A DNA stretch of 32,000 nucleotides. Source: an uncultured bacterium. Lineage in GTDB: Bacteria; Auribacterota; JACPWU01. Below are positions 576 through 30,796 of the stretch, in pieces; within the stretch, counting starts at the first letter, position 1, and each line of letters begins with the position of its first letter. The DNA lies in the NCBI GenBank assembly GCA_964640155.1, contig CAZXEQ010000005.1, positions 150,001 to 182,000 on the forward strand. The letters are read 5' to 3'. The translations under genes were made by a program, and so were the position numbers. The notes under the pieces are model-generated. The model was given only the letters and a program-made list of their open reading frames with translations. It was not told the DNA's origin and did not search any database.

Positions 576-3500
576 TATTGGCCTTAAATCCAAAATTAGC
601 TCCGGGCCTTAATCCCCCTGTATTAGGATCAAAAATAAAACGTTTATTTAGTCGAATTTGATCTAAAAACTCACCCGCCTCTATAATACCTTCAAGGTCT
701 AAAACAAATTTTCCAAAATCTATGATTTCTCTAATCAATATTTTGGCATCCTCTTTTGCTAAATCAGACTCTAGTTTTCTGATCTTATCTGCTGTCTGTT
801 TGTCGAGAGGCAGAAACTCATGAACCATTTCATGTGAAAAACCTGTAAAGAAAAGGGCTTGGCGATGGAGAGGATCAGAAATATTTAAAAGTCCAAGCAA
901 ATTGCAATAAACTTTGGCAGGTTTTTTGGATTCTTCAGAATCTTTATCGGATGAACCCCGATCTCTTTCGTGATTTCCAAAAAGGGTTTTATATCTTTTG
1001 TCTTTAACATCAGAGCCAAATGCAAGTTCTATTGGACCATTGAGATCTTTTCTACCTTTTAACTTCTCTCGATCTCGAATTGTCTTACTGAGTTTTTTAT
1101 AAAACTCCTCTCGAGTAGAGACTGGAGACTGGGAATCGGTAACAGTCAATCCCATCATCCTTTCAAACGCCTGAACCTTTGAATCACTCCCATCTGGGAG
1201 TTGAACCTCTCCATTTGTCATTGTGAATGTGATAGAACTCCCATCCAAAGCTTCATGGATCGCTTGCTCTTCTTTTTTTAAATCAGAAACTTTCAAACCC
1301 TCTCTGACTTCTGCACTGAAATTAAAAACTTCCGTATTGGACAAAGCATTCTCAGCTGCGGACGGCAAATCTCTATCCTCCGCTTTATGAATATAGATTT
1401 GGGCCAACCATGCTCGATGCAATTTTAAAAGCAGTCTTCCAATATTCCACTTTAATTCCGTTCCTTGCTCCCTAATAGAAGGGAGTATCGTCTTATTATA
1501 TTCCCATCCTAAAACTTCGCTTAAAGCAACTTTGAAATCATCATAGTGTTGAATAACCTCTTCCATCGCATCAGCAAATTTAGCCTGATCTTCAACCTCT
1601 AATTCCCAAAGTAATCCTTTCAAGTCTGTAATCATTCTCGCTAACTGCTTATAAAACTCAGCGAGTTCAGGATTTTCTCGAGCTACTCTTTTATAAAGAT
1701 ACGGCCGATCATTTCTTTTTTTTGTATTCACTTGAGGATCTCTCTTTTGAGGAGCTTTCTGTTGAGCCTCACGTGAAAGTAATGTCAATTCATCACGAAT
1801 GTTTCTCAAACGTTGTTTAAGTTCTACTCCTTTTTTAAAATCTTGTGATTTTTCCAATTGATCAATTTCTAAAGAAAGCTGTTGGAATTCTACATATAAA
1901 TCCTCAGCTTTTTTCACCTCTTCAGCCGCCCACGGTTCTCCTTTCATTCCCAGAGGAGGATATTTTAAAAGAGGGTCAAACATCTTCTCGACATGATTTC
2001 TAAATTTTTCTAATGCCAATATTTTTCTAAATACAGGATCTGCAATCAAACACGCATCATGCATTGCATTTGAAAAAGAAATACTATCCAAGCTTTGACT
2101 CATTTCTTCAGAGTTAACTTCCACCCATAAAACACCAGAACGGTAATCCATCTTAGCTCTTAAGGCATGAACTTTAGGGTTAATTCGAAATTGAATTTTT
2201 GGCAAACGATACTTCAAATTAGCTAATATTTTTCGTCTTACATAATTTTTACGATCTGAAAGCCCGTCCTTGCGCGAAGGATCTAGGAGCAAATCAAAAG
2301 CATTTACGAGTTTTTGTTTTAGTCGGTCAGTAGCTTCCCCTTCTTCAAATCCTTCAAGGGTCACATTTTCTTTCATTCTTAATTTACGAGCAATTTTCCA
2401 AAATCGTTCAATCGTTCTTCTCTCTCCTTTACGAAACAAATGATATCCTCTAACACCATCGGCCTTTTCATGATCCATCAAGGCTAACAGCGTATCTTGA
2501 TGCTTCTTACCTGCCTTCAATGCCCATTCAGAGAGGAAAACAGTGGGAATACCTTCAAATTCTTTAGATTTTTGCTGTTTACCTGCGTGTCCTAAAACAA
2601 GAGTAGCATCAAATACATTTGTATCATTTCCCCCTCTTATAGGGATCACATATCGATACCCTTTGCTGTCTTTGCCTCGTGTTTGATCAAGAAGTTCCAA
2701 ATAAGATTTAGTTTTTACTAAATTTTGATCCCGATCTTCTCGAACTACTAACTGGTCGGTCCAATAGTCAATGGCAGCATCTCGTTCTACATCACCCTGG
2801 ATATTTTTTGCAATCTCTTCAATAATTTCTTTGACCGAAAGATTTTGAAAACCCTTTTTATGCCACTGATTTAGATTTGTATCACTGACCGCTAATACAT
2901 GCCCCTGTTCAAAACTTTGTTTCAATGCAGTATGAATATACTCTTCTTCATCCAATCCTCTCACTGCAACATCTTTGGAATTTAGCTCTATACCGACTTC
3001 TCTCAAAAAATCTTTCATCATCTCTTGTTTTTCAGGTTTAAGACAATATTCAATGGAATAAGAGTGTTTCCTCAATTCATCTTTCAAAAGAACAGATTGT
3101 TGAATCATTTCTAAAGCTTTTGTACGATCGATCAAAATCAAAAAATAAAAAGTAAAACTAGGAAGTCCAAAGATATCTGACGCACACAACGTATTTAAAT
3201 ACTGCAAAAAGCTTTCTCGTTTATTTTCATCCTCATACATACCCACTAAAGCTTTAGCAATCTTTTTCCCAATCATGGCCTGAATCAACACACGATCCGG
3301 CATCAGATCTTCTCTATTTTCTCCCACATTAAAATGTTCATCCAAAAGAGCTGAAGCTTCTTCAAGCTCTGTACGATTCAAAAGCATTTCAGTTGCTTCA
3401 TCCAACGCTTGATCTCCCGTCTCTGGGAACATATGCCGTGTTGTTGTAGAAAGACCGTAACCCACTTCTATTAAACCATCAGGTTCCAATTTCTGCGCCA

Positions 3501-6186
3501 TCCTTGCAAGAACAGCTGGCATTTCTTTAGAAGGGAAAGCAACATGTCGAAGTGAAATAAAATCAAATTTTTCTTCTTGAGCCACTCGATCAACATCTTT
3601 ATCGCTCGTTACATCCATAGAATCAAAACGAAAATGAATTCCTTCTCCCTCAAAAATATCTTTTCTAATCCAGAAAAACCCATAGCGATCTTTATTAAAA
3701 AATTTGCTAGCTCTTTCTAAAGTCTCTGATTCACTAAAATCTGATGCACGTTCTGGTTCTGGAAGTACATGGGATGCAGCATACGGTCCACCTTCACGGG
3801 CAACAGCAACTAACTCCGAACGTAAATCTGTGATAACAATTTCTACATGAGGATGAATACCAGTTCTAGCTGAAAAAGCTGCGTCAGAAAAAACCCCAAC
3901 ATCATAACCTTCTGCACCATTGCTAGCTCCTACAATCAAACATTTAATAGGACCTCTGGGGTGTGTGCGGATCTCAGATTCAACGATTCTTCTAAGATAT
4001 TTTCCATCACGCCCAAAATAAGTTTTCTGACGCACGAGTGCTTTTTTGTAAATAGAAATGTAGACTGTTAAATCTTTCGCAAAAGCTTCTGAAACTTCTC
4101 TTGCTTCCTCTCCATAAACATCCCCACGATATTGATAATCTGATTCTAATCCCTCTAAAAACTCTCCTGCTAGAGCATCTCCATTTCTTTGGGCAACAAT
4201 TAAACGATGTATATATCTTTGAATTCTTAATGGAATAAAATTAAATCCATCGGAAAATCTCCAACGCACAAAAGCCTCCGCCCCTGCAACAGCTTCTGGA
4301 TGTGAGACCGTACAACCCTCCATCCAAGGCACCACAGCTTGGCCTGTTTTAGGTTTTACTTCTTCCATTGCTTCATGAATCAATAAAGAGAGCAAAAATT
4401 CTACCCTGTCATGAAAAAGATTTTCCCCTATAGCTTCGTTATAATCATGAATCGTTTCGTAATCCTCTTGATTCACAATAATATGTAAAATACCGTTCTC
4501 AACATAGCGTCTGGCTTGAACATCCTTCACATCCTTCGAACGATAAAATTTTATTCTTCCTTCAGCCAAAGCTCTTTGAATACGCTTAAGGGCTTCTTCA
4601 TATTTTGAATGTTGAGACAGACCAGGTGGGGTTCGATCACGAGACAATTGATCCAATTCTTTTCGCTTTAAAATTTCTTCTATTGCTGCCTGTATTTCCG
4701 TCTCTTTCTCTATCGGTTCTGCTTGAGATAAATCAATTTCATCAGATACAGTACAATGTCCTTCTACAGGAGAACCCACATATTTTGCTGCTCCTGAAAT
4801 TGATCGTTCCGATTCTTTTGCTCGTGCGACCAACGAATCAGATGTTCTTTGAATCGCAGAAATACTGCGAGAGGGATCTTGCATATTAGAGATAAGAAGT
4901 TCTTTATATTGTTCCACCCAATAATCATTAAATCCTGCTTTTCTTAATCTTTCTAAAATCCTACTTAAGAGTTGATTTCTCTGATTATAATCTCCCATTC
5001 TCTTCAATACTTCATCCAAAACTTCATGCCTTTCTTCCTCTGAGTTAAAACTTAAATAAGGGTAAACTAGTTTGAAATATTCTTTAATTTCATCTACATC
5101 TCCTCCATCAAACACTGCTAACTCTTTTAGCGCTTTTTCAAATCTATCCTCCTTAGTTTCGATCTTTGAAAGATCTATCAAACTAACTCTTCCAGAACCA
5201 TCCACATGAAATAAAAGATGTTTCGGTTTAACATCTATAAGGCTTGTCATCAACATGAGCATTGCTAATTCTATTTTTTGTTCTCTCGTCATCATTTCAC
5301 ATGGATTACTGCTTGTTTCAGATTCCTGATATTCTGTAACCATATAAACTTCAGGTACTATCCCCCACCAAAGATCTCTCATTTGATATGTGACAGCAGG
5401 GGGAGATTGAATAACCGAAAGACCTAATTTCTCCATTACAATTCTGACGAAAATTTCATTATAAAGAGCGTCGAACCCCTTCTCCATTCCGGAAAGAAAG
5501 CCTGTATCAGAATCTCGCTTCACAACATACTTCTTCCCATTAATTTCAACAACTCTCGCATCCCCAACGGTTCCTCCTAGTCGTTCACCATTTAAAGTAT
5601 GAGGGAACACCCCGTCAAAAAGCACTCTCACTTGATCCTCATTTAAAATGGCATTGTGGAGCTTTGACACTACAACTTCTTTAGTTTTAGCAAAATAATC
5701 TCTAACCATTTGAGTTAATACAGAGTCTTTGCCAAAAGCTTTTTCCATCGAGGTTATCCAAAGTTGAACTTGAGCAGGATTTGAGCCATCTGCTTCTGGA
5801 AAATTAATAAAAAGAGATAACAACCGAAAGAGAGCATTTTGCTCTCTTTCATCGAGCTCTGACCAAATCTTCGAAAGCCAAGATTCAAAAATATCTCGCG
5901 GAGATAGTCCTTTCCTAAGACCCTCTCTAAACTCACGAATCATGATATCTTCAAGAACAGAACGCTTATCTGCTGCAATATCTGACCATCTGTCTCCTGT
6001 GACAAGAGGAGTCTGTAAGGTTTCTTTAGATACTTGCGGATCAAATATTATCTGATCAATTGAAGAGTCTGCAAAAGCGTTTTTGAGGTCAATTCCCGAA
6101 AAGTCGAAAAAGAAGGTTAAAGAAAGACATATGGACAATGCCTTCGTCATAAAAGGTTTTAAACTATATTGAAATAACATCCCCAT
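1..6186 (-). CDS. Giant multidomain protein B, N-terminal 2062 codons; the C-terminus lies beyond the left edge and the ORF is absent from the supplied track
   Basis: Hand translation of the minus frame in phase with ATG 6186-6184 gives MGMLFQYSLKPFMTKALSICLSLTFFFDFSGIDLKNAFADSS... and I met no stop down to position 1. In-frame TGA TGA TAA at 6240-6232 close the frame upstream. Phase was re-checked at KCLIVGAS (about 3940), DVKPK (about 5230), HEMVH (834-820) and PHG (558-550), all in register. If there were an internal stop, the complete ORF from 6186 to that stop should appear in the track, and it does not. Alternative starts are 6180 and 6150. Confidence 0.85.
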   Translation of the reverse strand, partial: MGMLFQYSLKPFMTKALSICLSLTFFFDFSGIDLKNAFADSSIDQIIFDPQVSKETLQTPLVTGDRWSDIAADKRSVLEDIMIREFREGLRKGLSPRDIFESWLSKIWSELDEREQNALFRLLSLFINFPEADGSNPAQVQLWITSMEKAFGKDSVLTQMVRDYFAKTKEVVVSKLHNAILNEDQVRVLFDGVFPHTLNGERLGGTVGDARVVEINGKKYVVKRDSDTGFLSGMEKGFDALYNEIFVRIVMEKLGLSVIQSPPAVTYQMRDLWWGIVPEVYMVTEYQESETSSNPCEMMTREQKIELAMLMLMTSLIDVKPKHLLFHVDGSGRVSLIDLSKIETKEDRFEKALKELAVFDGGDVDEIKEYFKLVYPYLSFNSEEERHEVLDEVLKRMGDYNQRNQLLSRILERLRKAGFNDYWVEQYKELLISNMQDPSRSISAIQRTSDSLVARAKESERSISGAAKYVGSPVEGHCTVSDEIDLSQAEPIEKETEIQAAIEEILKRKELDQLSRDRTPPGLSQHSKYEEALKRIQRALAEGRIKFYRSKDVKDVQARRYVENGILHIIVNQEDYETIHDYNEAIGENLFHDRVEFLLSLLIHEAMEEVKPKTGQAVVPWMEGCTVSHPEAVAGAEAFVRWRFSDGFNFIPLRIQRYIHRLIVAQRNGDALAGEFLEGLESDYQYRGDVYGEEAREVSEAFAKDLTVYISIYKKALVRQKTYFGRDGKYLRRIVESEIRTHPRGPIKCLIVGASNGAEGYDVGVFSDAAFSARTGIHPHVEIVITDLRSELVAVAREGGPYAASHVLPEPERASDFSESETLERASKFFNKDRYGFFWIRKDIFEGEGIHFRFDSMDVTSDKDVDRVAQEEKFDFISLRHVAFPSKEMPAVLARMAQKLEPDGLIEVGYGLSTTTRHMFPETGDQALDEATEMLLNRTELEEASALLDEHFNVGENREDLMPDRVLIQAMIGKKIAKALVGMYEDENKRESFLQYLNTLCASDIFGLPSFTFYFLILIDRTKALEMIQQSVLLKDELRKHSYSIEYCLKPEKQEMMKDFLREVGIELNSKDVAVRGLDEEEYIHTALKQSFEQGHVLAVSDTNLNQWHKKGFQNLSVKEIIEEIAKNIQGDVERDAAIDYWTDQLVVREDRDQNLVKTKSYLELLDQTRGKDSKGYRYVIPIRGGNDTNVFDATLVLGHAGKQQKSKEFEGIPTVFLSEWALKAGKKHQDTLLALMDHEKADGVRGYHLFRKGERRTIERFWKIARKLRMKENVTLEGFEEGEATDRLKQKLVNAFDLLLDPSRKDGLSDRKNYVRRKILANLKYRLPKIQFRINPKVHALRAKMDYRSGVLWVEVNSEEMSQSLDSISFSNAMHDACLIADPVFRKILALEKFRNHVEKMFDPLLKYPPLGMKGEPWAAEEVKKAEDLYVEFQQLSLEIDQLEKSQDFKKGVELKQRLRNIRDELTLLSREAQQKAPQKRDPQVNTKKRNDRPYLYKRVARENPELAEFYKQLARMITDLKGLLWELEVEDQAKFADAMEEVIQHYDDFKVALSEVLGWEYNKTILPSIREQGTELKWNIGRLLLKLHRAWLAQIYIHKAEDRDLPSAAENALSNTEVFNFSAEVREGLKVSDLKKEEQAIHEALDGSSITFTMTNGEVQLPDGSDSKVQAFERMMGLTVTDSQSPVSTREEFYKKLSKTIRDREKLKGRKDLNGPIELAFGSDVKDKRYKTLFGNHERDRGSSDKDSEESKKPAKVYCNLLGLLNISDPLHRQALFFTGFSHEMVHEFLPLDKQTADKIRKLESDLAKEDAKILIREIIDFGKFVLDLEGIIEAGEFLDQIRLNKRFIFDPNTGGLRPGANFGFKANNSYTLIPHGQTDWNIENRYPGGVDISLNDVGQQQAKQIAENLYFKYEKDIRAGRLPIIYSSPLNCAYATAQVFQDLVRERVGVELPIHIEPNLKEMAWGDWSGKTKEECGQTNPELYERFNSGEDFGVEAPGVSESGIEALRRSEHVYEQLEARHQGQKLLIFGHGQDLGMMSFILGNSVAMDDRDRLDFVK
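665..1430 (-). other. HExxH (zincin-like) module of giant B, paralogous to 10960-11640 in giant A
   Basis: FNFSAEVREGL...ITFTMTNGEV...FGSDVKDKRYKTLFGNHERD...FFTGFSHEMVHEFL...LAKEDAKILIREI aligns by eye with the giant A segment HFSAEVNEGL...VTFTVTNGDI...FGSDRTQKEYRTLFGNHKTD...FLTGMSHETVHEFL...LAEEDARILQREI. The HEMVH codons are at 834-820. Confidence 0.5.
3465..3990 (-). other. CheR-type SAM-dependent methyltransferase-like domain of giant B
   Basis: IKCLIVGASNGAEGYDVGV (compare CheR iWSAGCSTGEEPYSiA), EIVITDLRSELVAVAREGGPY (compare i.ATDId...L..Ar.G.Y), and KFDFISLRHVAF...VLARMAQKLEPDGLIEVGYG (compare fDlIfCRNVlIYF...vl..l...L.pgG.L.lG). Confidence 0.55.
5150..5600 (-). other. Atypical protein-kinase-like domain of giant B
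   Basis: LGGTVGDARVVEINGKKYVVKRD looks like a Gly-rich loop plus the beta3 lysine. ALYNEIFVRIV is helix-C-like, VYMVTEYQE hinge-like, SLIDVKPKHLLF a DxKPxN-type catalytic loop with His in place of Asn, and RVSLIDLSK a DFG position reading DLS. Confidence 0.4.
5675..6000 (-). other. N-proximal module shared by both giants (giant B copy), function unknown
   Basis: REFREGLRKGLSPRDIFESWLSKIWSELDEREQNALFRLLSLFINFPEADGSNPAQVQLWITSMEKAFGKDSVLTQMVRDYFAK aligns without gaps to the giant A segment DDLREGLAQGRSPRQIFEGWLSRIWDGLDEQEHTSLRTLLSQFVNFPEANASNPTQAKIWLDMMNKAFGEDSVLTQIVREYFES. About 50 of 84 positions are identical by hand count. Confidence 0.8.
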
Positions 6187-6330: not shown

Positions 6331-9300
6331 TTAAGCTGCAACCTCAATTTCAGCCGGAGATCTTAAAACATGAGGAACACTTCGTGGCAACCCTGAAACT
6401 GCCTTTAAAACAGATTTTTTTAGAGAAATAGCGGTATCCGAAAGAGGTTGATACGCTTCCAACGCACGATCAAGCGCTTCTACAGAAGCTTGTGCAGAAT
6501 CTAATTTTGACTTCAAAATCTCTGCTAATTGATGTGTTAACTCTTTTAAGAATTGATCCCTTACTGATCCATCTAATATTGCATCTGCCCGTCTGGCACC
6601 TTCGGCTATCGCTCCTGCAAAATCGAAAGAATTACTAGCTTGTCGATAAGAAGCTAAAAAAGTTCTTATTTCTCCTTTTAGGACTTCTAAAGAATTCATC
6701 GTACTGAGAGGCGTCGCTTCGGTCCCTTTTTCCTCTTTCAACTCAATCTGATTCAATTCAAGTTCTACACTCTGTCCACTTTCATCTTTTAACCAATGGA
6801 TTTGAAGTGTCCCCTTCTCTTCATCGTAACTTAACAACTCTGGGAATGTATTCGATAACTCATTGAGATCTCTTAAGTAATATTCATAATCTCCTTCCGT
6901 TAAGTCTATTCTCCTTTGCCCTCTTAACACTCTCTCATGCAGTTCTTCTAACAAATGATAATCCTCTTCACCCATCGCCTTCTCTTTACTTCGATCCTTC
7001 ATTATTAAATATTCTTCTATTTTCTTAATTTTCTCTGCATCCAATGTCAGTTTTGTTCCTTGCCCTATTTCTCTTTCAAGGCTCTTGTTTTTCTTTTGTA
7101 TGGCTTCTCTTAAGGTGTAGTAACCTTGTACTACTTGCTCTGTCCAAAATCTATCAAAGGCCTCCAACCCTTCTGCCTCTAGTTTTTCTTTGAACAGTAT
7201 GGCAAAAGAGCGATCCTGTTCTGTATGTTTTGCATTTCTTAATGTCTTCATATCTCCAACTAAGATGAGTCGATCTGAAGCTCGACTCAATGCTACATTC
7301 AGCCGATTGATATTGGCGACAAAGCCTACTTTGCTTGGATCTGGGTTACTTCTTACAAAGCTATAGATGACTACTGCATTTTCTCTTCCCTGATAACTAT
7401 CTACAGTCCCTATCTGGCTTTCTACGATAGCTTGTGCCTCATCTTTCTTCATCTTTCTTTCTCTTATTAGATAGTCTCTTATCTTTTCTCTGATTAACTC
7501 TACCTGCGATTGATACGCTGATAATATACTTATCTGTTCTGATCTATACCCAGATGCCAATGCCCTTTTGTATTCTTCTAAGCATTTGTTTGCTTCTTCT
7601 GTGTTTTGATAGCTTGTACCCCTAGCTTCTTCATTGCCTGAAGCTTTTTTCATAGGGACATCAACTCTTCTTACTGTGTCTTCTTCCATCATTCGCCATG
7701 TCTTAGGAACCATCATTTTGTTATAAATGAGTCGGCCTATCATGACGGATATCACAGGATGGCTTCTATAGTTACGAGCTAAAAATGTTTGGGCTTGTCC
7801 TTTGTTCCATCTTCTTGCCATTCCACTTTCTTGGATCATTGCCCGATAGATGTCTGTTTGACCTTTCATCGCAGCTTCATCTATAAATGGCTCTAATTGT
7901 AAATGGTCTCCTGCTAAGATGATCTTTTCTTTTGCTTTTGCTCCTGCCAATACCGTATCTATCTCATTGACGGTTCCTGCTTCATCTATAATGACAACAT
8001 CATATTCTTGATCTGCCGTCTCCGGCACTCGATACATGGAGTCTGTTGTGACTCCAACCACATATCCCTTTCCATTTGTTTTCCTTTTCTTAAACTCTTT
8101 CATTCCTTCCCCGTTATAGCCATCCTCCCTTGCTTGATTCCACACTTGATATTTTCTTAGAGACTCTATAACTCGATCATCTCCTCTTCCTTCTTCTCCT
8201 CGACTATACGCTCTTAAAATAGGAACTTTATTTCGATCCAGTCGCTCTAATACATTGTCTACGGCCAGATTTGTCCGACTGACCACCAATACTCTCTTGC
8301 CTTGCTTCACCAGCTGCTGTGCTATTTCTACCACTGTTGCGGTCTTCCCACTTCCTGCTCCTCCTTGTATCAACGCTACTTTTGTCCTAGGATGTAAGGC
8401 CATCCTTACAGCATTGGATTGGAATGGATCTTGAGCTACTCTTTCATCTTGGATCTGAATCTTACTTTTCTCTTCGCTGATTTCTTCTTTATTGATTGTC
8501 TCTGGTTTTTCAAGCCCTAAAAGTTCTCTCGTTGCTCGACTTAAACCATTTCTTACTTGAGCTTTTCCTCCGATTGCTCTGAGCCTCTCTATTTGTATAG
8601 CTCTTAAGGCAACATTATTGCCTAGCTCTTTTTCTTTGCCTTCAACCATCTCTTTTAATTCTCCCAAAACGTTTTTCAGCTCCTTACTCTGAGAGCTATG
8701 TCCTACCTCTCCGGGTAGTTTTAATGATGTTACTTTGGCTTCTCTGTTATATTCTTCATCTAAGATGCTTATTTCTGGTAATGCAATTCCAAATCGCCGG
8801 GCTGCTTCTAGAAGCGATTCATTGGGCTCTTTTCCATTGAGCAATGCCCAGCTGTCATTCGTTAGTCCTCTCCTTACTCTATCCTCTAACGCTTGCTCTA
8901 CCAGACCGGGACTGGAATACCCTTGCGCTTTCATCACCCGCAACATCCAATGTCCATGTATAGGTGATTTAATCAGTCGACTTAATCGCGTGATCATTCT
9001 ACCTTCAACTTCTCTTTGCGTCTCATAAATCCATTCTTCTAATGTTTCATCATAAAATCGTCTCACTTTTACTTTGCCAGGTTTTCCAATTCCTGTGGAA
9101 AGTATAGCTTTCTTGTGCTTTCCATCATCAGTCCAAGAAAAATGGACTCTACCACCGCTATACACTTCTGTTTTCCATTCCAAAGGTTCAAACCCATCCT
9201 TATTTTGGACATCTTGAGCCTTAAGCTGTTGAATAACTTTTTCTTTATTGCGATCAAATATTTCAAGCTTCCAGAAATTTTTGCCCTCTTCCTTAACCAA

Positions 9301-18891: not shown

Positions 18892-18965
<74 letters not shown>

Positions 18966-19062: not shown

Positions 19063-19134
19063 GCCAGGGTAGCTCAGAGGTAGAGCGGGGCTCTCATAAG
19101 GCCTAGGTCGTGGGTTCGATTCCCCCCTCTGGCA
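19063..19134 (+). tRNA. tRNA with anticodon CAT (elongator Met, or Ile2 that needs lysidine; undecided)
   Basis: GCCAGGGTAGCTCAGAGGTAGAGCGGGGCTCTCATAAGGCCTAGGTCGTGGGTTCGATTCCCCCCTCTGGCA folds as a cloverleaf. The acceptor is GCCAGGG/CTCTGGC, the D stem GCTC/GAGC, the anticodon loop CTCATAA and the T loop TTCGATT. There is one T:C mismatch in the T stem. Confidence 0.8.
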
Positions 19135-25649: not shown

Positions 25650-25925
25650 TTATCCTTTAACTCTTTTTTTGCTATGCCATTTCTTAAATACCTTCGAGTC
25701 AAATTTTGAGAGTTCTAGATGGAAAGTCCACGGCAAAAAAATCACTAAAGTCACATAAGCTAAATCTTCTCGGTGAGAATAATAAGTCTCAGCAAGAATC
25801 TTTTGCTTACGAAAAACCTTTGCTAAGCCTTCAAGATGGTTCACATCCTCTGTTGAGGAAGCATAGAGTTCCAGAACTTCTTTGCAACGATATGGAAGCT
25901 TTGTAATCTCATTAGTTTTTTTCAT
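25650..25925 (-). CDS. Hypothetical protein (91 aa, start trimmed to ATG 25925)
   Basis: The track ORF 25650-25997 has an N-terminal extension that runs into the GC-rich repeat element. The internal start gives MKKTNEITKLPYRC... with GGAAGGA about 9 nt upstream. No family recognised. Confidence 0.35.
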   Translation of the reverse strand: MKKTNEITKLPYRCKEVLELYASSTEDVNHLEGLAKVFRKQKILAETYYSHREDLAYVTLVIFLPWTFHLELSKFDSKVFKKWHSKKRVKG

Positions 25926-26049
25926 AAAAGTGTGTCCTTCCCAGATGCGGGTGATACTCGGCGGGGCGCCCCGCCGAGCGCAACGTTTACTGAGCACGGT
26001 GGGGCTGACAAGTAGCAGGACCCGCTACTTTTTCAAAGGACACACTTTT
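25926..26049. repeat. About 124-nt GC-rich structured intergenic element, copy A (possible ncRNA, cis-regulatory RNA or REP/MITE-like element)
   Basis: Closing inverted repeat AAAAGTGTGTCCTT...AAGGACACACTTTT and an internal hairpin CTCGGCGGGG-CG-CCCCGCCGAG. The conserved core ATGCGGGTGAyACTCGGCGGGG...TGAGCACGrTGGGGCTGAC...GCAGG...GCTAC is shared with copy B. Confidence 0.7.
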
Positions 26050-26086
26050 ATAAATGTAATCTTATAAAACATAAAGTGTGTTCACA

Positions 26087-26114
26087 TTGACAAAGCACTT
26101 AAGTCTACTATAAT
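26087..26114 (+). promoter_or_regulatory. Consensus sigma-70 promoter for the HAD gene (TTGACA, 16-nt spacer, TATAAT)
   Basis: TTGACA 26087-26092, a 16-nt spacer, TATAAT 26109-26114. ATG 26124 follows only 9 nt after the -10 and there is no SD, which suggests a leaderless or near-leaderless mRNA. Confidence 0.55.
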
Positions 26115-26822: not shown

Positions 26823-28579
26823 TTCTTTTTTCTTTTCTTCAAGAATTTTTCCATCTCCTTTACAGAAAGTGTATTCACAATATCTTTAGGTTCAAGCCAG
26901 CCTTTGCGAGCAATCCCAATCCCAAATTTGACAACATCTAATCCTACAACGCTATGAGCATCAGGATTAATGCTTAATTTAGTTCCTTTTGATTTGGCGT
27001 AAGGGCAATGTCTCCAATCCAAATCAAAGCGATGGGGACTTGCATTTAGTTCCATCACCACACCTAATCGACTTGCTGCGTCAATGACTTCATGCATATT
27101 GAGAGCATAAGGCTCTCGCTCTAAAATCAAACGTCCTGTTGGATGCCCTAGAAAAGTTACATAAGGATTTTCCATCGCTTTGATAATACGCTGTGTCATT
27201 TCTTTTTCAGCCATTCCAAATCGGCTGTGAACCGAAGCAATGATAAAGTCAAATTTTGGCCAAACCTTTTCATCATAATCAATAGCTCCATCACCCAAAA
27301 TATCTGCTTCAATCCCTTTAAAAATTCGAATCTCTTTAAATTCTTTTGCAAGTTTTTCTAATTCTTCATGTTGTTTAAAAACTTCATCTTCTTTCAACCC
27401 CTTGGCATAAAAAGCGGATTTACTATGATCTGAAATCCCCACATATTCATAACCCAAATCAATACACCCTTGAATCATCTCTCGCAAAGTTGCATTCCCA
27501 TCGCTCCAATTGCTATGGACATGAAAAACTCCTCGAATATCTTTTTCAGAAATAAGTGTCGGAATTTTTCCCTTTTCAGCCGCTTCAATCTCCCCTTGAT
27601 TTTCACGAAGCTCCGGTGGAATTTCAGACAAACCGAGGGCCTTGAAAATAGCAGCTTCGTCCTTACATTTGACAAGCATATCATCTTCTTTAAAGAGGCC
27701 ATATTCATTGAGCTTCATGTTCATCTTTTTTGCCCGACTGCGCATCGCTGTATTGTGTTCTGCACTGCCTGTAAAATGATGCAGTGCGTAGGGAAACTGA
27801 GAATCTTCAACAACACGTAAATCCACATTAATGCCCGATTTTAAAAGAACACTGGTTTTGGTTTCCCCTTTTGCAATAATGCGTTCTACTTCAGGAAGAG
27901 AAGCAAAGGTATCCATCAGGGCAACTGCATCTTTAGATTTGGCGCTCACCAAAAGATCAATATCTTTAATCAATTCTTTATGCCGACGCAAACTTCCAGC
28001 AAGACTCGAGCGAATGATTTTGGGATGTTTTCCAAACGCTTGTAAAATGAGTTGAGCTTGTGCATCTACTTCATCATAACGATGACGCTCTTCATTTTTA
28101 CGAATAAACTCTATGCCCTGCAAAATTTTGGTTTGAGTCTTTTCTCCAAAACCTTCTAATTTTAAAAGAAGATTCTCACGGCAGGCTTTTTCTAATTGAT
28201 GAATACTTGTTATTTTTAAATTTTTGTAAAGGGCTTGAATTTTTTTGGGTCCTAATCCCGGGATACTCAACATTTCAAGCAATCCTTCGGGAACAGATTT
28301 TTTCAAATCCTCATAATAAGTAAGCCGACCTGTGGTCACAAGCTCAGTAATTTTTTCGGAGAGGGCTTCACCAATCCCTTTAATCTCTTGAAGAGATTTC
28401 TGTTTCACCAATGTGACAAGATCTTCTTCGAGGGCTTCAATGATACGTGCTCCATTTGAATAGGCACGTGACTTGAAAGGATTTTCGCCTTTAAGTTCCA
28501 GGAGAACAGCAATTTCTTCTAGAATATGTGCAACTTCGTGTTTATCCATAAATACAGGAAATAGGATTTTGTGAATCAT
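26819..28579 (-). CDS. polX: Family X DNA polymerase with a C-terminal PHP domain (PolX); the likely true start is ATG 28549
   Basis: The N-terminus MDKHEVAHILEEIAVLLELKGENPFKSRAY is typical of PolX. HhH motifs GIGEALSEKI and IPGLGPKKI are present, as are the Pol-beta-like palm LAGSLRRHKELIKDIDLLV and the PHP segment FHVHSNWSDG...GISDHS. Confidence 0.9.
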   Translation of the reverse strand: MIHKILFPVFMDKHEVAHILEEIAVLLELKGENPFKSRAYSNGARIIEALEEDLVTLVKQKSLQEIKGIGEALSEKITELVTTGRLTYYEDLKKSVPEGLLEMLSIPGLGPKKIQALYKNLKITSIHQLEKACRENLLLKLEGFGEKTQTKILQGIEFIRKNEERHRYDEVDAQAQLILQAFGKHPKIIRSSLAGSLRRHKELIKDIDLLVSAKSKDAVALMDTFASLPEVERIIAKGETKTSVLLKSGINVDLRVVEDSQFPYALHHFTGSAEHNTAMRSRAKKMNMKLNEYGLFKEDDMLVKCKDEAAIFKALGLSEIPPELRENQGEIEAAEKGKIPTLISEKDIRGVFHVHSNWSDGNATLREMIQGCIDLGYEYVGISDHSKSAFYAKGLKEDEVFKQHEELEKLAKEFKEIRIFKGIEADILGDGAIDYDEKVWPKFDFIIASVHSRFGMAEKEMTQRIIKAMENPYVTFLGHPTGRLILEREPYALNMHEVIDAASRLGVVMELNASPHRFDLDWRHCPYAKSKGTKLSINPDAHSVVGLDVVKFGIGIARKGWLEPKDIVNTLSVKEMEKFLKKRKKN

Positions 28580-28643
28580 CTTTCACGATTCTATTCTAAT
28601 ACATTATGAGTCTTTTATCACTATTCACTATGATAGTATGCAT

Positions 28644-28768
28644 AAAAGTGTGTACTTTATACATGCGGGTGACACTCGGCGGGGGGCCCCATCGAGCGGG
28701 ACTTTTGTTGAGCACGATGGGGCTGACGAGTGGCAGGCCCTGCTACATTTTTTAAAGTACACACTTTT
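28644..28768. repeat. About 125-nt GC-rich structured intergenic element, copy B
   Basis: Closing inverted repeat AAAAGTGTGTACTTTA...TAAAGTACACACTTTT. It has the same orientation and core as copy A, and base changes relative to copy A are paired across the closing stem. Confidence 0.7.
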
Positions 28769-28806
28769 AATTGCATGATCTTCACTATACCCTATCCCCT
28801 TTTTAT

Positions 28807-28835
28807 TTGACCTTTTCAGACACCTTTTGTACACT
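28807..28835 (+). promoter_or_regulatory. Candidate sigma-70 promoter for the ferredoxin gene (TTGACC, 17-nt spacer, TACACT)
   Basis: TTGACC 28807-28812, a 17-nt spacer, TACACT 28830-28835, about 65 nt upstream of ATG 28899, which has a strong SD (GGAGGAAACA ATG). Confidence 0.35.
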
Positions 28836-30630: not shown

Positions 30631-30796
30631 CTCTTATCCAGAGTGGCTGAGGGAAAGGCCCGATGATGCCACGGCAACCGCTCCGATAATAATCGGGGGC
30701 CAGGTGCTAACTCCTCTATTCAAAGGAATTAAGCTTTGAATGGAAAGATAAGAAAAGGTCCATTTCAACCTCTTCTTATCGAAGAGGTTTTTTTTT
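30631..30796 (+). promoter_or_regulatory. SAM-I (S-box) riboswitch with terminator expression platform
   Basis: CTCTTATCCAGAGTGGCTGAGGGAAAGGCCCGATGATGCCACGGCAACC...CAGGTGCTAACTCC...GGAAAGATAAGAA matches the conserved S-box core (CTTATCnAGAG, GAGGGA, GGCCCGATGA, GCAACC, GGTGCTAA, AGATAAGA). The terminator is AACCTCTTC-TTATC-GAAGAGGTT plus a T-run (30767-30796). The P1 3' strand GATAAGAA (30747-30754) can instead pair with TTCTTATC (30773-30780) as an antiterminator. Confidence 0.9.

Follow-up and report, generated by a model that had tools for sequence, protein, structure and literature searches.

A palindromic repeat of uncultured bacteria that joins the traits of a mobile element to a conserved, predicted folded core

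Within a stretch of 32,000 nucleotides from an uncultured bacterium (GTDB lineage Bacteria; Auribacterota; JACPWU01; positions 150,001 to 182,000 of the forward strand of contig CAZXEQ010000005.1, GenBank assembly GCA_964640155.1), here called the window, we analyzed a GC-rich element that is closed by inverted repeats and occurs in two copies, A and B. In our reading, to which we assign a probability of roughly 55%, this element consists of two separable layers, with terminal repeats that would serve its movement and a core that would travel as cargo under a selection of its own. The unit behaves as a non-autonomous mobile element, being multi-copy, lying in either orientation, packed against gene boundaries and missing from both sites in the closest relative. 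Judged from the aligned copies, at least three distant bacterial phyla have kept its core, with compensating mutations, and this conserved, covarying interior, common to several phyla and absent from Rfam, is the unusual part of the element.

Both copies had been proposed in the original prediction, made from the letters of the window, as elements of about 124 bases, and reading of the sequence together with an inverted-repeat scan found them at the positions proposed (Table 1), including the perfect 14-nt repeat that closes copy A. The full arms are longer, with 19 nt at 95% complementarity in copy A (25921-25939 / 26036-26054) and 17 nt at 100% in copy B (28643-28659 / 28753-28769). A perfect inverted repeat of 14-17 nt, about 95 nt apart and found twice around the same core, is not a product of chance. 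The copies share 88% identity by column over 157 aligned columns, short flanks included, and 82% over their 84-nt cores, and each is nearer to copies in other genomes (92% for A, 90% for B) than to the other (82%). Their core has a GC content of about 65%, compared to 38% for the window and the genome, and both copies fold far more stably than shuffled sequence on both strands (z -5.1 to -8.5). As predicted, a C-to-A change in the left arm of copy B is paired with a G-to-T change in its right arm, and GCGGG/CCTGC in copy B retains a G:U pair.

Altogether 16 copies were gathered from metagenome-assembled genomes (MAGs) labelled Auribacterota or 'Chlamydiae', a Krumholzibacteriota MAG and Rokubacteria-like genomes. 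The lineage of the window belongs to the uncultured bacteria of the PVC (Planctomycetes-Verrucomicrobia-Chlamydiae) group labelled Auribacterota or 'Chlamydiae', and the PolX of the window organism is nearest to MAGs labelled 'Chlamydiae bacterium'. A short form with common terminal repeats is present in the Auribacterota/'Chlamydiae'-labelled MAGs and a long form with a tip of ~83 nt in the Rokubacteria-like genomes. Scanning a genome collection of 596 Gb with a 17-base pattern, which was too short, gave mostly chance matches in GC-rich genomes, and BLAST together with the covariance model R1 set five real copies apart from about 100 false ones. One Candidatus Auribacterota MAG carries three copies on three contigs (L005, L045, L087), the Krumholzibacteriota MAG carries L082, and a GC-rich MAG carries two copies (L053); a 23-base pattern run against metagenomes returned only two records of one locus (L106/L107). 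As gene callers predict spurious open reading frames (ORFs) across the element, their translations could be used as protein-database queries, with the long-form ORF leading to L113, L114 and L115 and a short-form peptide profile to L116, L117 and L118. When 1.84 billion representative proteins were searched exhaustively with HMMER, only seven matches came up, so the family is rare. The host of L113 was placed with Candidatus Rokubacteria, as its neighbouring methylmalonyl-coenzyme A (CoA) mutase falls into a cluster of at least 90% identity with a Rokubacteria protein. Two matches were discarded, L034 lying in an aminotransferase coding sequence and L006 having none of the three pairings P1-P3 described below. 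Viral contigs and phage and plasmid collections held no true copy, with the short form compared to plasmids and phages and the long form to plasmids only; the sole plasmid match of the long form was a chance match of 40 nt within a relaxase gene. A string search of the literature for the invariant 12-13-mers returned unrelated PCR primers only.

The central ~85 bases are predicted to fold into a rod of three nested helices, P1 (GCGGGU/ACCCGC), P2 (CACUCG/CGAGUG) and P3 (GCCCCRYCG/CGRUGGGGC), separated by conserved purine-rich internal loops and capped by a variable tip. Both loops are asymmetric: between P1 and P2, UGA lies opposite GCAGGA (3 vs 6 nt), and between P2 and P3, NCGGGGN lies opposite UGA (7 vs 3 nt). 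The tip starts from the junction GCG.../...GAGCA and varies in length from about 20 nt to the ~83 nt of the long form. P1 is the long-range pairing GCGGGT/ACCCGC that had been proposed for copy A; in copy B it has one G:U pair and one U/C mismatch. A 10-bp GC hairpin (CTCGGCGGGG/CCCCGCCGAG) had also been predicted, and it is indeed perfect in copy A but interrupted in copy B and most other copies and without covariation. In the conserved fold its CCCCGCCG strand pairs instead with CGGTGGGG in P3, and across the copies the CCCCRYCG strand pairs with CGRUGGGG. As the compensated changes in P3 create mismatches in the hairpin, we discarded the latter as a functional helix.

The covariation originally read from two copies holds in 15-16 copies. 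In an alignment of 15 copies to the model (A7), made besides a count on 11 copies, 95.2% of 314 cells are standard pairs, 12 of the 21 pairs show double-sided changes, including all six of P2, and none of 500 column shuffles reached the observed covariation score. When the 3' partners were slid by 1-3 columns as a control, only 33-49% of the cells were paired, with at most four double-change pairs. P1 shows a change from C-G to U-A, and P3 shows C-G to U-A, C-G to G-C and, at its outer pair, G-C to A-U. In the eight short copies alone, P3 is paired to 100%, P2 to 97.9%, P1 to 89% and the terminal-repeat stem to 82.6%. For the long tip no fold could be settled from six sequences, and inspection revealed no pseudoknot partner for the conserved loops. 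Taken at the level of the alignment, this pattern argues that selection acts on the structure of the element. That structure rather than a reading frame is selected had been part of the original prediction, and it agrees with indels of 5 nt and 23 nt among related copies, which break the one long ORF that there is.

The long form adds two further observations. In Rokubacteria-like genomes the element has a low copy number, and one syntenic site has been held while compensated changes accumulated. The element fills there, on the antisense strand, the gap from the stop codon of CoA-transferase subunit A to the subunit B ribosome-binding site; in this gap gene callers place an ORF of 54-67 aa, which indels in the tip bring out of frame while the flanking genes show third-position change, and a 60-aa ORF between the CoA-transferase genes was therefore rejected as a real gene. 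In L053 two inverted long-form copies, at 963-1119 (-) and 5618-5763 (+), bracket a ~4.5 kb operon for CoA-transferase, acyl-CoA synthetase and ABC-permease, one lying antisense between the two CoA-transferase subunit genes and the other in sense after the permease gene. Between these paralogues the lower stem and each of P1, P2 and P3 show compensated changes, with the sequence of the tip unchanged.

Core and arms can be told apart by how they change. The sequence of the lower stem is wholly different between the lineages and always pairs, over 8 bp in L082, 10-14 bp in the long forms and 14-17 bp in the short forms. The terminal repeat AAAAGTGTGTCCTTTA is present at both ends of copies A and B, L045, L116 and L120 and has decayed in L005, L087, L117 and L118. 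In L087 the core is still 90% identical to the reference copy, compared to 52-62% for the arms, and in L005 the values are 83% and 67%, the lower stem of L005 having changed on both sides and still pairing in part. Cores entirely without AAAAGTGTGT arms are found in L082, L106/L107, L053, L113, L114 and L115.

Several observations speak for movement. The closest relative, a Logan short-read metagenome contig (L119, PolX 83% identical), has the same row of genes (MFS, ferredoxin, PolX, HAD, small ORF, pterin dehydratase, ACT, deformylase, GAF kinase) without the element at either site. In a second relative (L120, PolX 75%) site A is empty as well, and a 175-nt variant with the same arms and P1 is located elsewhere, having a different P3 (CCCCCGCUGA/UCAGCGGGGG) and a different, AT-rich tip. 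Two independent Logan assemblies of the window organism (L122 from SRR8893623 and L123 from SRR19881398) both start at window position 28669 inside copy B, a break that is typical of a dispersed repeat. One short element is even translated in frame within a 1913-aa alpha-2-macroglobulin-like protein (P0131, residues ~984-1017, KNVGDARRGAPSSATFTEHDGADERQDPLLFKKTH). Thus the unit shows the traits of a miniature inverted-repeat transposable element (MITE): it is short (124-175 nt), non-coding and multi-copy, with two copies in the window and at least three on three contigs of one MAG, and it has conserved terminal inverted repeats and is present or absent at orthologous sites. Having been offered as alternatives, 'MITE' and 'structured element' apply at once, as conserved termini and patchy presence go along with strong covariation.

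At the insertion sites a consistent target-site duplication could not be defined across the copies. TGCAT flanks copy B on both sides and occurs once in the empty site of L119, a duplication seen at copy B only and not reproduced elsewhere. Outside the perfect arms most copies (B, L045, L116, L118 and L120) have a second, imperfect inverted repeat, GATSNT.TGYATAT ... ATATRCANSATC, and the empty site of L119 (about 6015-6045) already has both of its halves, ATAGTTTGCAT-ATCT-ATTATACAG. This suggests that the flank repeat is either a preferred small palindromic target or the footprint of an excision. Near copy A a half-site had been predicted at 26069-26080; it is real, forming an inverted repeat of 9 bp together with copy A's right arm, but as a 10-mer with one mismatch it stays within chance (9 found, 3.4 expected). 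It is possibly the stump of a lost neighbouring copy, or a chance match.

The Correia/NEMIS, RUP, ERIC and Rickettsia palindromic elements (RPE) are 100-160 bp long, with terminal inverted repeats and flanking TA, and lie in short intergenic sites. Our element resembles these MITEs in size, terminal inverted repeats, flanking TA, its place in short intergenic regions, presence and absence between relatives and a stable predicted hairpin, and, as with the Rickettsia elements, one copy is read in frame within a protein. A typical MITE conserves its termini, on which its function depends, and lets its interior drift, whereas here it is the interior that covaries and outlasts the termini of old copies, and other phyla have homologues of it that lack these termini. 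The element is most like REPINs (discussed below) and the MITEs of the Correia/ERIC/RPE type and has most features of a MITE except a proven duplication and a known parent; we know of no parent insertion sequence (IS).

From these data we propose the following model. The inner layer would be a module of ~85 nt that folds as a single strand and is older than the lineage of the window, and the outer layer a palindromic repeat of ~124-150 bp around it with the terminal inverted repeats (GATSNTGYATAT)AAAAGTGTGTCCTTTA. Movement of the unit by its terminal repeats would depend on a transposase provided in trans, while the core, a folded single strand to which a specific protein binds, would act where it is inserted. 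Such a protein-bound core would account for loops that are near-invariant across phyla, for helices that only covary and for cores that outlast their decaying terminal repeats. Tentatively, the core may represent a new functional class of folded nucleic acid that is common to Rokubacteria, Krumholzibacteriota and Auribacterota-like bacteria and was captured by a MITE in one lineage; it could then be a protein-binding or self-cleaving RNA, or a folded single-stranded DNA site for a recombinase or HUH enzyme.

As to the molecule, alignment A7 has seven wobble cells (G:U or U:G) against three C:A cells, L053b adds two wobble pairs, and one position of P3 alternates between A-U and G:U, with G:U in 6 of 15 copies of both short and long form. 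By a modest margin, the + strand of the window thus appears to be the better-paired strand. Because of the recurrent G:U pair and of a GC-rich core in an AT-rich genome we lean slightly towards an RNA from the + strand, with single-stranded DNA as a serious rival.

Several points weigh against the two-layer model and its RNA version. The variant in L120 has perfect arms but has lost P2 and had its tip replaced, so that the arms are better conserved there than the core. TA borders every intact copy but belongs to the palindrome, leaving no clear duplication. No transposase or solo termini were found in the fetched loci and their flanks, and a genome-wide search for a parent element was not made. 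The strand call depends on about nine wobble cells against three, and an RNA that needs read-through from the host is disfavoured because of the evenly mixed orientation and the lack of a conserved internal promoter. Finally, with only ~16 DNA copies and a handful of translated ones in this small family, all statistics draw on few and partly related sequences, and gene conversion among copies could inflate the apparent conservation of the core.

A purely selfish DNA, either a REPIN or a folded attachment site, would explain the same hairpin as the single-stranded substrate of an HUH/Y1 transposase (RAYT, IS200-like) or of a tyrosine recombinase; the conserved loops would then be recognition or cleavage sites of the enzyme and the 'terminal repeats' a mere lower stem. 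We regard this as the less probable explanation, and a somewhat doubtful one. REPINs are intergenic hairpins of ~100-120 nt that are found in either orientation, show frequent compensatory changes and persist vertically for long times at orthologous sites, and their folding is predicted in single-stranded DNA or mRNA (PMC3116915). The element shares all of this: it is a long intergenic hairpin repeat with compensatory changes, and its mixed orientation and its one stable syntenic site in Rokubacteria-like genomes are as in REPINs (PMC3116915). The lower stem of L005, altered on both sides and still partly paired, also fits. However, REPINs are symmetric doublets of REP (repetitive extragenic palindromic) sequences, two inverted REPs with conserved ends around a variable spacer, and in our element the halves are not inverted copies of one REP, the middle is the conserved part and its loops are asymmetric. 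In addition, the outer stem varies by lineage, there is no conserved GTAG, and the core is common to several phyla. No Y1 transposase was present among the annotated neighbours, which cover fragments of the host genomes only, and the fetched flanks held neither a RAYT nor an integrase gene.

Attachment sites that recombine as folded strands offer a second comparison. Integron attC and the attP of CTX phage fold as imperfect hairpins that show strand asymmetry, keep their bulges conserved and vary in the length of their terminal structure, and the element is similar to them in its asymmetric loops and strand asymmetry and in a tip of about 20 to 83 nt beside conserved bulges, which speaks for a selfish DNA. 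It differs from attC by the absence of cassette arrays, by having no integrase nearby in the fetched flanks and by a much stronger sequence conservation. Sequence inspection found no R''/R' boxes (RYYYAAC...GTTRRRY) at the stem ends, which read AAAAGTGTGT.., CCGAACGGG.. and CCGGATGGG.. and lack AAC/GTT boxes in register, and the copies are surrounded by housekeeping genes whose orientation is mixed. Two further points count against a selfish DNA. A core kept in old copies with decayed outer stems would require the outer stem to be dispensable, and the + strand of the window has a negative GC skew (two copies only), so that the structured strand would be the leading-strand template and not the strand exposed to IS200-type enzymes.

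The core might also be an independent small RNA gene, protein-binding or catalytic, e.g. a new self-cleaving ribozyme, with a promoter of its own or one close by and with the mobile repeat as a secondary setting. Ribozymes and aptamers usually stand out by covarying helices, near-invariant loops and a variable peripheral stem, as seen here, a core of ~65% GC in a genome of 38% GC is what one expects of a structural RNA when the genome is AT-rich, one strand has recurring G:U pairs, and the paralogues in one Rokubacteria-like genome have many compensated differences with the tip sequence kept. The element is also like the orphan RNA motifs of Rfam and the small self-cleaving ribozymes in its covarying helices, near-invariant unpaired bases, variable stem, patchy distribution among phyla and several copies per genome; it differs from the Rfam orphans in lacking a conserved gene context, an orientation bias and a pseudoknot. 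As the unit contains no conserved promoter or terminator, as it fills the whole gap from stop codon to ribosome-binding site on the antisense strand in Rokubacteria-like genomes, and as it has neither a match in Rfam nor a pseudoknot partner on inspection, we consider a separate RNA gene unlikely.

The absence of a recognised riboswitch or small RNA family, noted in the original prediction, was confirmed by Rfam scans without a match to the element. Scanned at the gathering threshold, the window gave no Rfam 15 matches other than an S-adenosylmethionine (SAM) riboswitch and two ordinary tRNAs; for both copies and 11 loci with other forms, scanned at an E-value threshold, the best matches overlapping the element reached 12.5-15 bits (E about 1 to 9). 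Several known structures were also tried and rejected. By eye, the hammerhead-like CUGACGA (CUGANGA-like) falls in a helix and reads CUGACAA in copy A, and a K-turn in the P1/P2 loop is opposed by a G at position 2b and, in three copies, a G at position 1n. A tmRNA 5' end and tRNA-like folds were rejected too, ARAGORN having found no tRNA or tmRNA in the three element-bearing loci L120, L045 and L116, and a likeness of the long tip to segments of RNase P or the signal recognition particle RNA had no support from Rfam.

We have also considered a cis-regulatory RNA (riboswitch, attenuator or terminator) of the adjacent HAD hydrolase, ferredoxin or 91-aa genes, which is close to refuted. Both window copies are located upstream of + strand genes on the same strand, and the 3' strands of P1 and P2 are overlapped by an alternative hairpin that, with its U run, resembles a terminator. 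In the short forms it reads GU(A/G)GC-AGGACCC-GC(U/C)AC followed by a U run, with a single and weak supporting substitution (L116); the counterpart in copy A is GTAGC..GCTAC+TTTTT at 26012-26033. The lower stem is bordered by A4 and T4, like a bidirectional terminator, and the inner alternative hairpin is followed by U5-6, yet 4 of 13 copies lie in spacers with divergent promoters, where no terminator is needed. The promoter-like sites for the HAD and ferredoxin genes are both downstream of the copies, and the HAD promoter is kept in L119, which has the same gene order without the element. Therefore a tie of the element to its flanking genes was not borne out. Neighbours also differ across copies (ATPase, ComEC-like, ClpB-like, nuclease, CoA-transferase, beta-helix protein), and with about 5 copies in sense, 5 antisense and 3 in divergent spacers about half of the copies are antisense to their neighbours. 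A riboswitch would be expected on the sense strand, in the 5' untranslated region of genes that stay much the same from copy to copy, and the element is not a riboswitch for the adjacent genes. A sigma-54 promoter in TGGCAGGACCCGC was rejected by eye, its GG-GC spacing being off by 2.

A small protein-coding gene or a chance similarity can practically be dismissed: gene callers predict ORFs of 33-73 aa over several copies, and the Rokubacteria-like ORF overlaps its neighbours by 1-4 nt, but indels of 5 nt and 23 nt and, in copy A, a stop codon interrupt the frame, substitutions in the helices are compensatory and not concentrated at third codon positions, and conservation extends to these same nucleotides in copies that have no frame in common.

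Table 1. Features of the element copies and adjoining sites in the window.
Feature	Position	Strand	Details and basis
Copy A, terminal repeat to terminal repeat, 124 nt	25926..26049	+	covariance model R1 107 bits; inverted-repeat scan
Copy A left terminal inverted repeat AAAAGTGTGTCCTT	25926..25939	+	lower stem, 5' strand
Copy A right terminal inverted repeat AAGGACACACTTTT	26036..26049	+	lower stem, 3' strand
Copy A core	25947..26025	+	P1 25947-25952/26020-26025; P2 25955-25960/26009-26014; P3 25968-25976/25997-26005; alignments A2/A4/A7
Copy A P1/P2 loop	25953-54 opposite 26015-19		GA opposite GCAGG
Copy A P2/P3 loop	25961-67 opposite 26006-08		GCGGGGC opposite TGA
Copy A tip	25977-25996		last bases are the invariant GAGCA
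Solo half-site AAAGTGTGT	26073..26081	+	24 nt from copy A right arm; adjoins -35 of HAD promoter
HAD promoter, perfect TTGACA-16-TATAAT	26087-26114		downstream of copy A
Possible target-site duplication TGCAT	28639..28643	.	left of copy B; again at 28772-28776, three bases past right arm
Copy B, terminal repeat to terminal repeat, 125 nt	28644..28768	+	covariance model R1 103 bits; inverted-repeat scan
Copy B left arm AAAAGTGTGTACTTTA	28644-28659	+	
Copy B right arm TAAAGTACACACTTTT	28753-28768	+	
Copy B core	28665..28743	+	P1 28665-28670/28738-28743; P2 28673-28678/28727-28732; P3 28686-28694/28715-28723; tip 28695-28714
Alternative terminator-like hairpin GTGGCAGG/CCTGCTAC, then T run	28730..28753	+	from P2 and P1 3' strands
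Ferredoxin promoter-like site	28807-28835		downstream of copy B

With regard to the neighbouring genes, copy A lies in the leader of a 91-aa ORF, antisense to it, and its arm provides the GGAAGGA Shine-Dalgarno-like site of this ORF, as had been predicted. The prediction that both copies abut a start codon on the minus strand applies to copy A, where the 91-aa ORF starts at 25925, but is trivial for copy B, where PolX starts at 28579. The promoter-like site downstream of copy B places this copy between two divergent promoters. The 91-aa ORF itself (25650-25925, -) has no Pfam match and is conserved beside the HAD gene in L119, L120 and L124 with 91-104 aa.

Elsewhere in the window the SAM-I riboswitch (Rfam RF00162, 77 bits) is located at 30631-30754 (+), and the genes after it, read in the overlapping contig L122, encode a PALP enzyme, a ThiS-like protein, a NIL domain and an APS kinase. 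The two tRNA genes are found at 18892-18965 and 19063-19134 (+; 64 and 63 bits in Rfam). A 3164-aa ORF at 6331-15825 (-) has six tandem repeats of 336 nt (112 aa) at 8995-10867 and superfamily-1 helicase domains (AAA_11/AAA_12) at its C-terminus, and another large ORF probably extends past the left boundary of the window.

As a rule, small palindromic repeats are set aside as selfish DNA with a freely drifting interior, and here the interior is the constrained part. If the fold is that of an RNA, it would be a new structured RNA class with a ready set of natural variants, and if it is a DNA hairpin, it would point to a not yet described enzyme system for hairpin recognition in uncultured phyla that have been little studied. 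The element is also a practical marker, since assemblies break there. Either way, it would be a clear case of a mobile repeat that carries a selected structural module.

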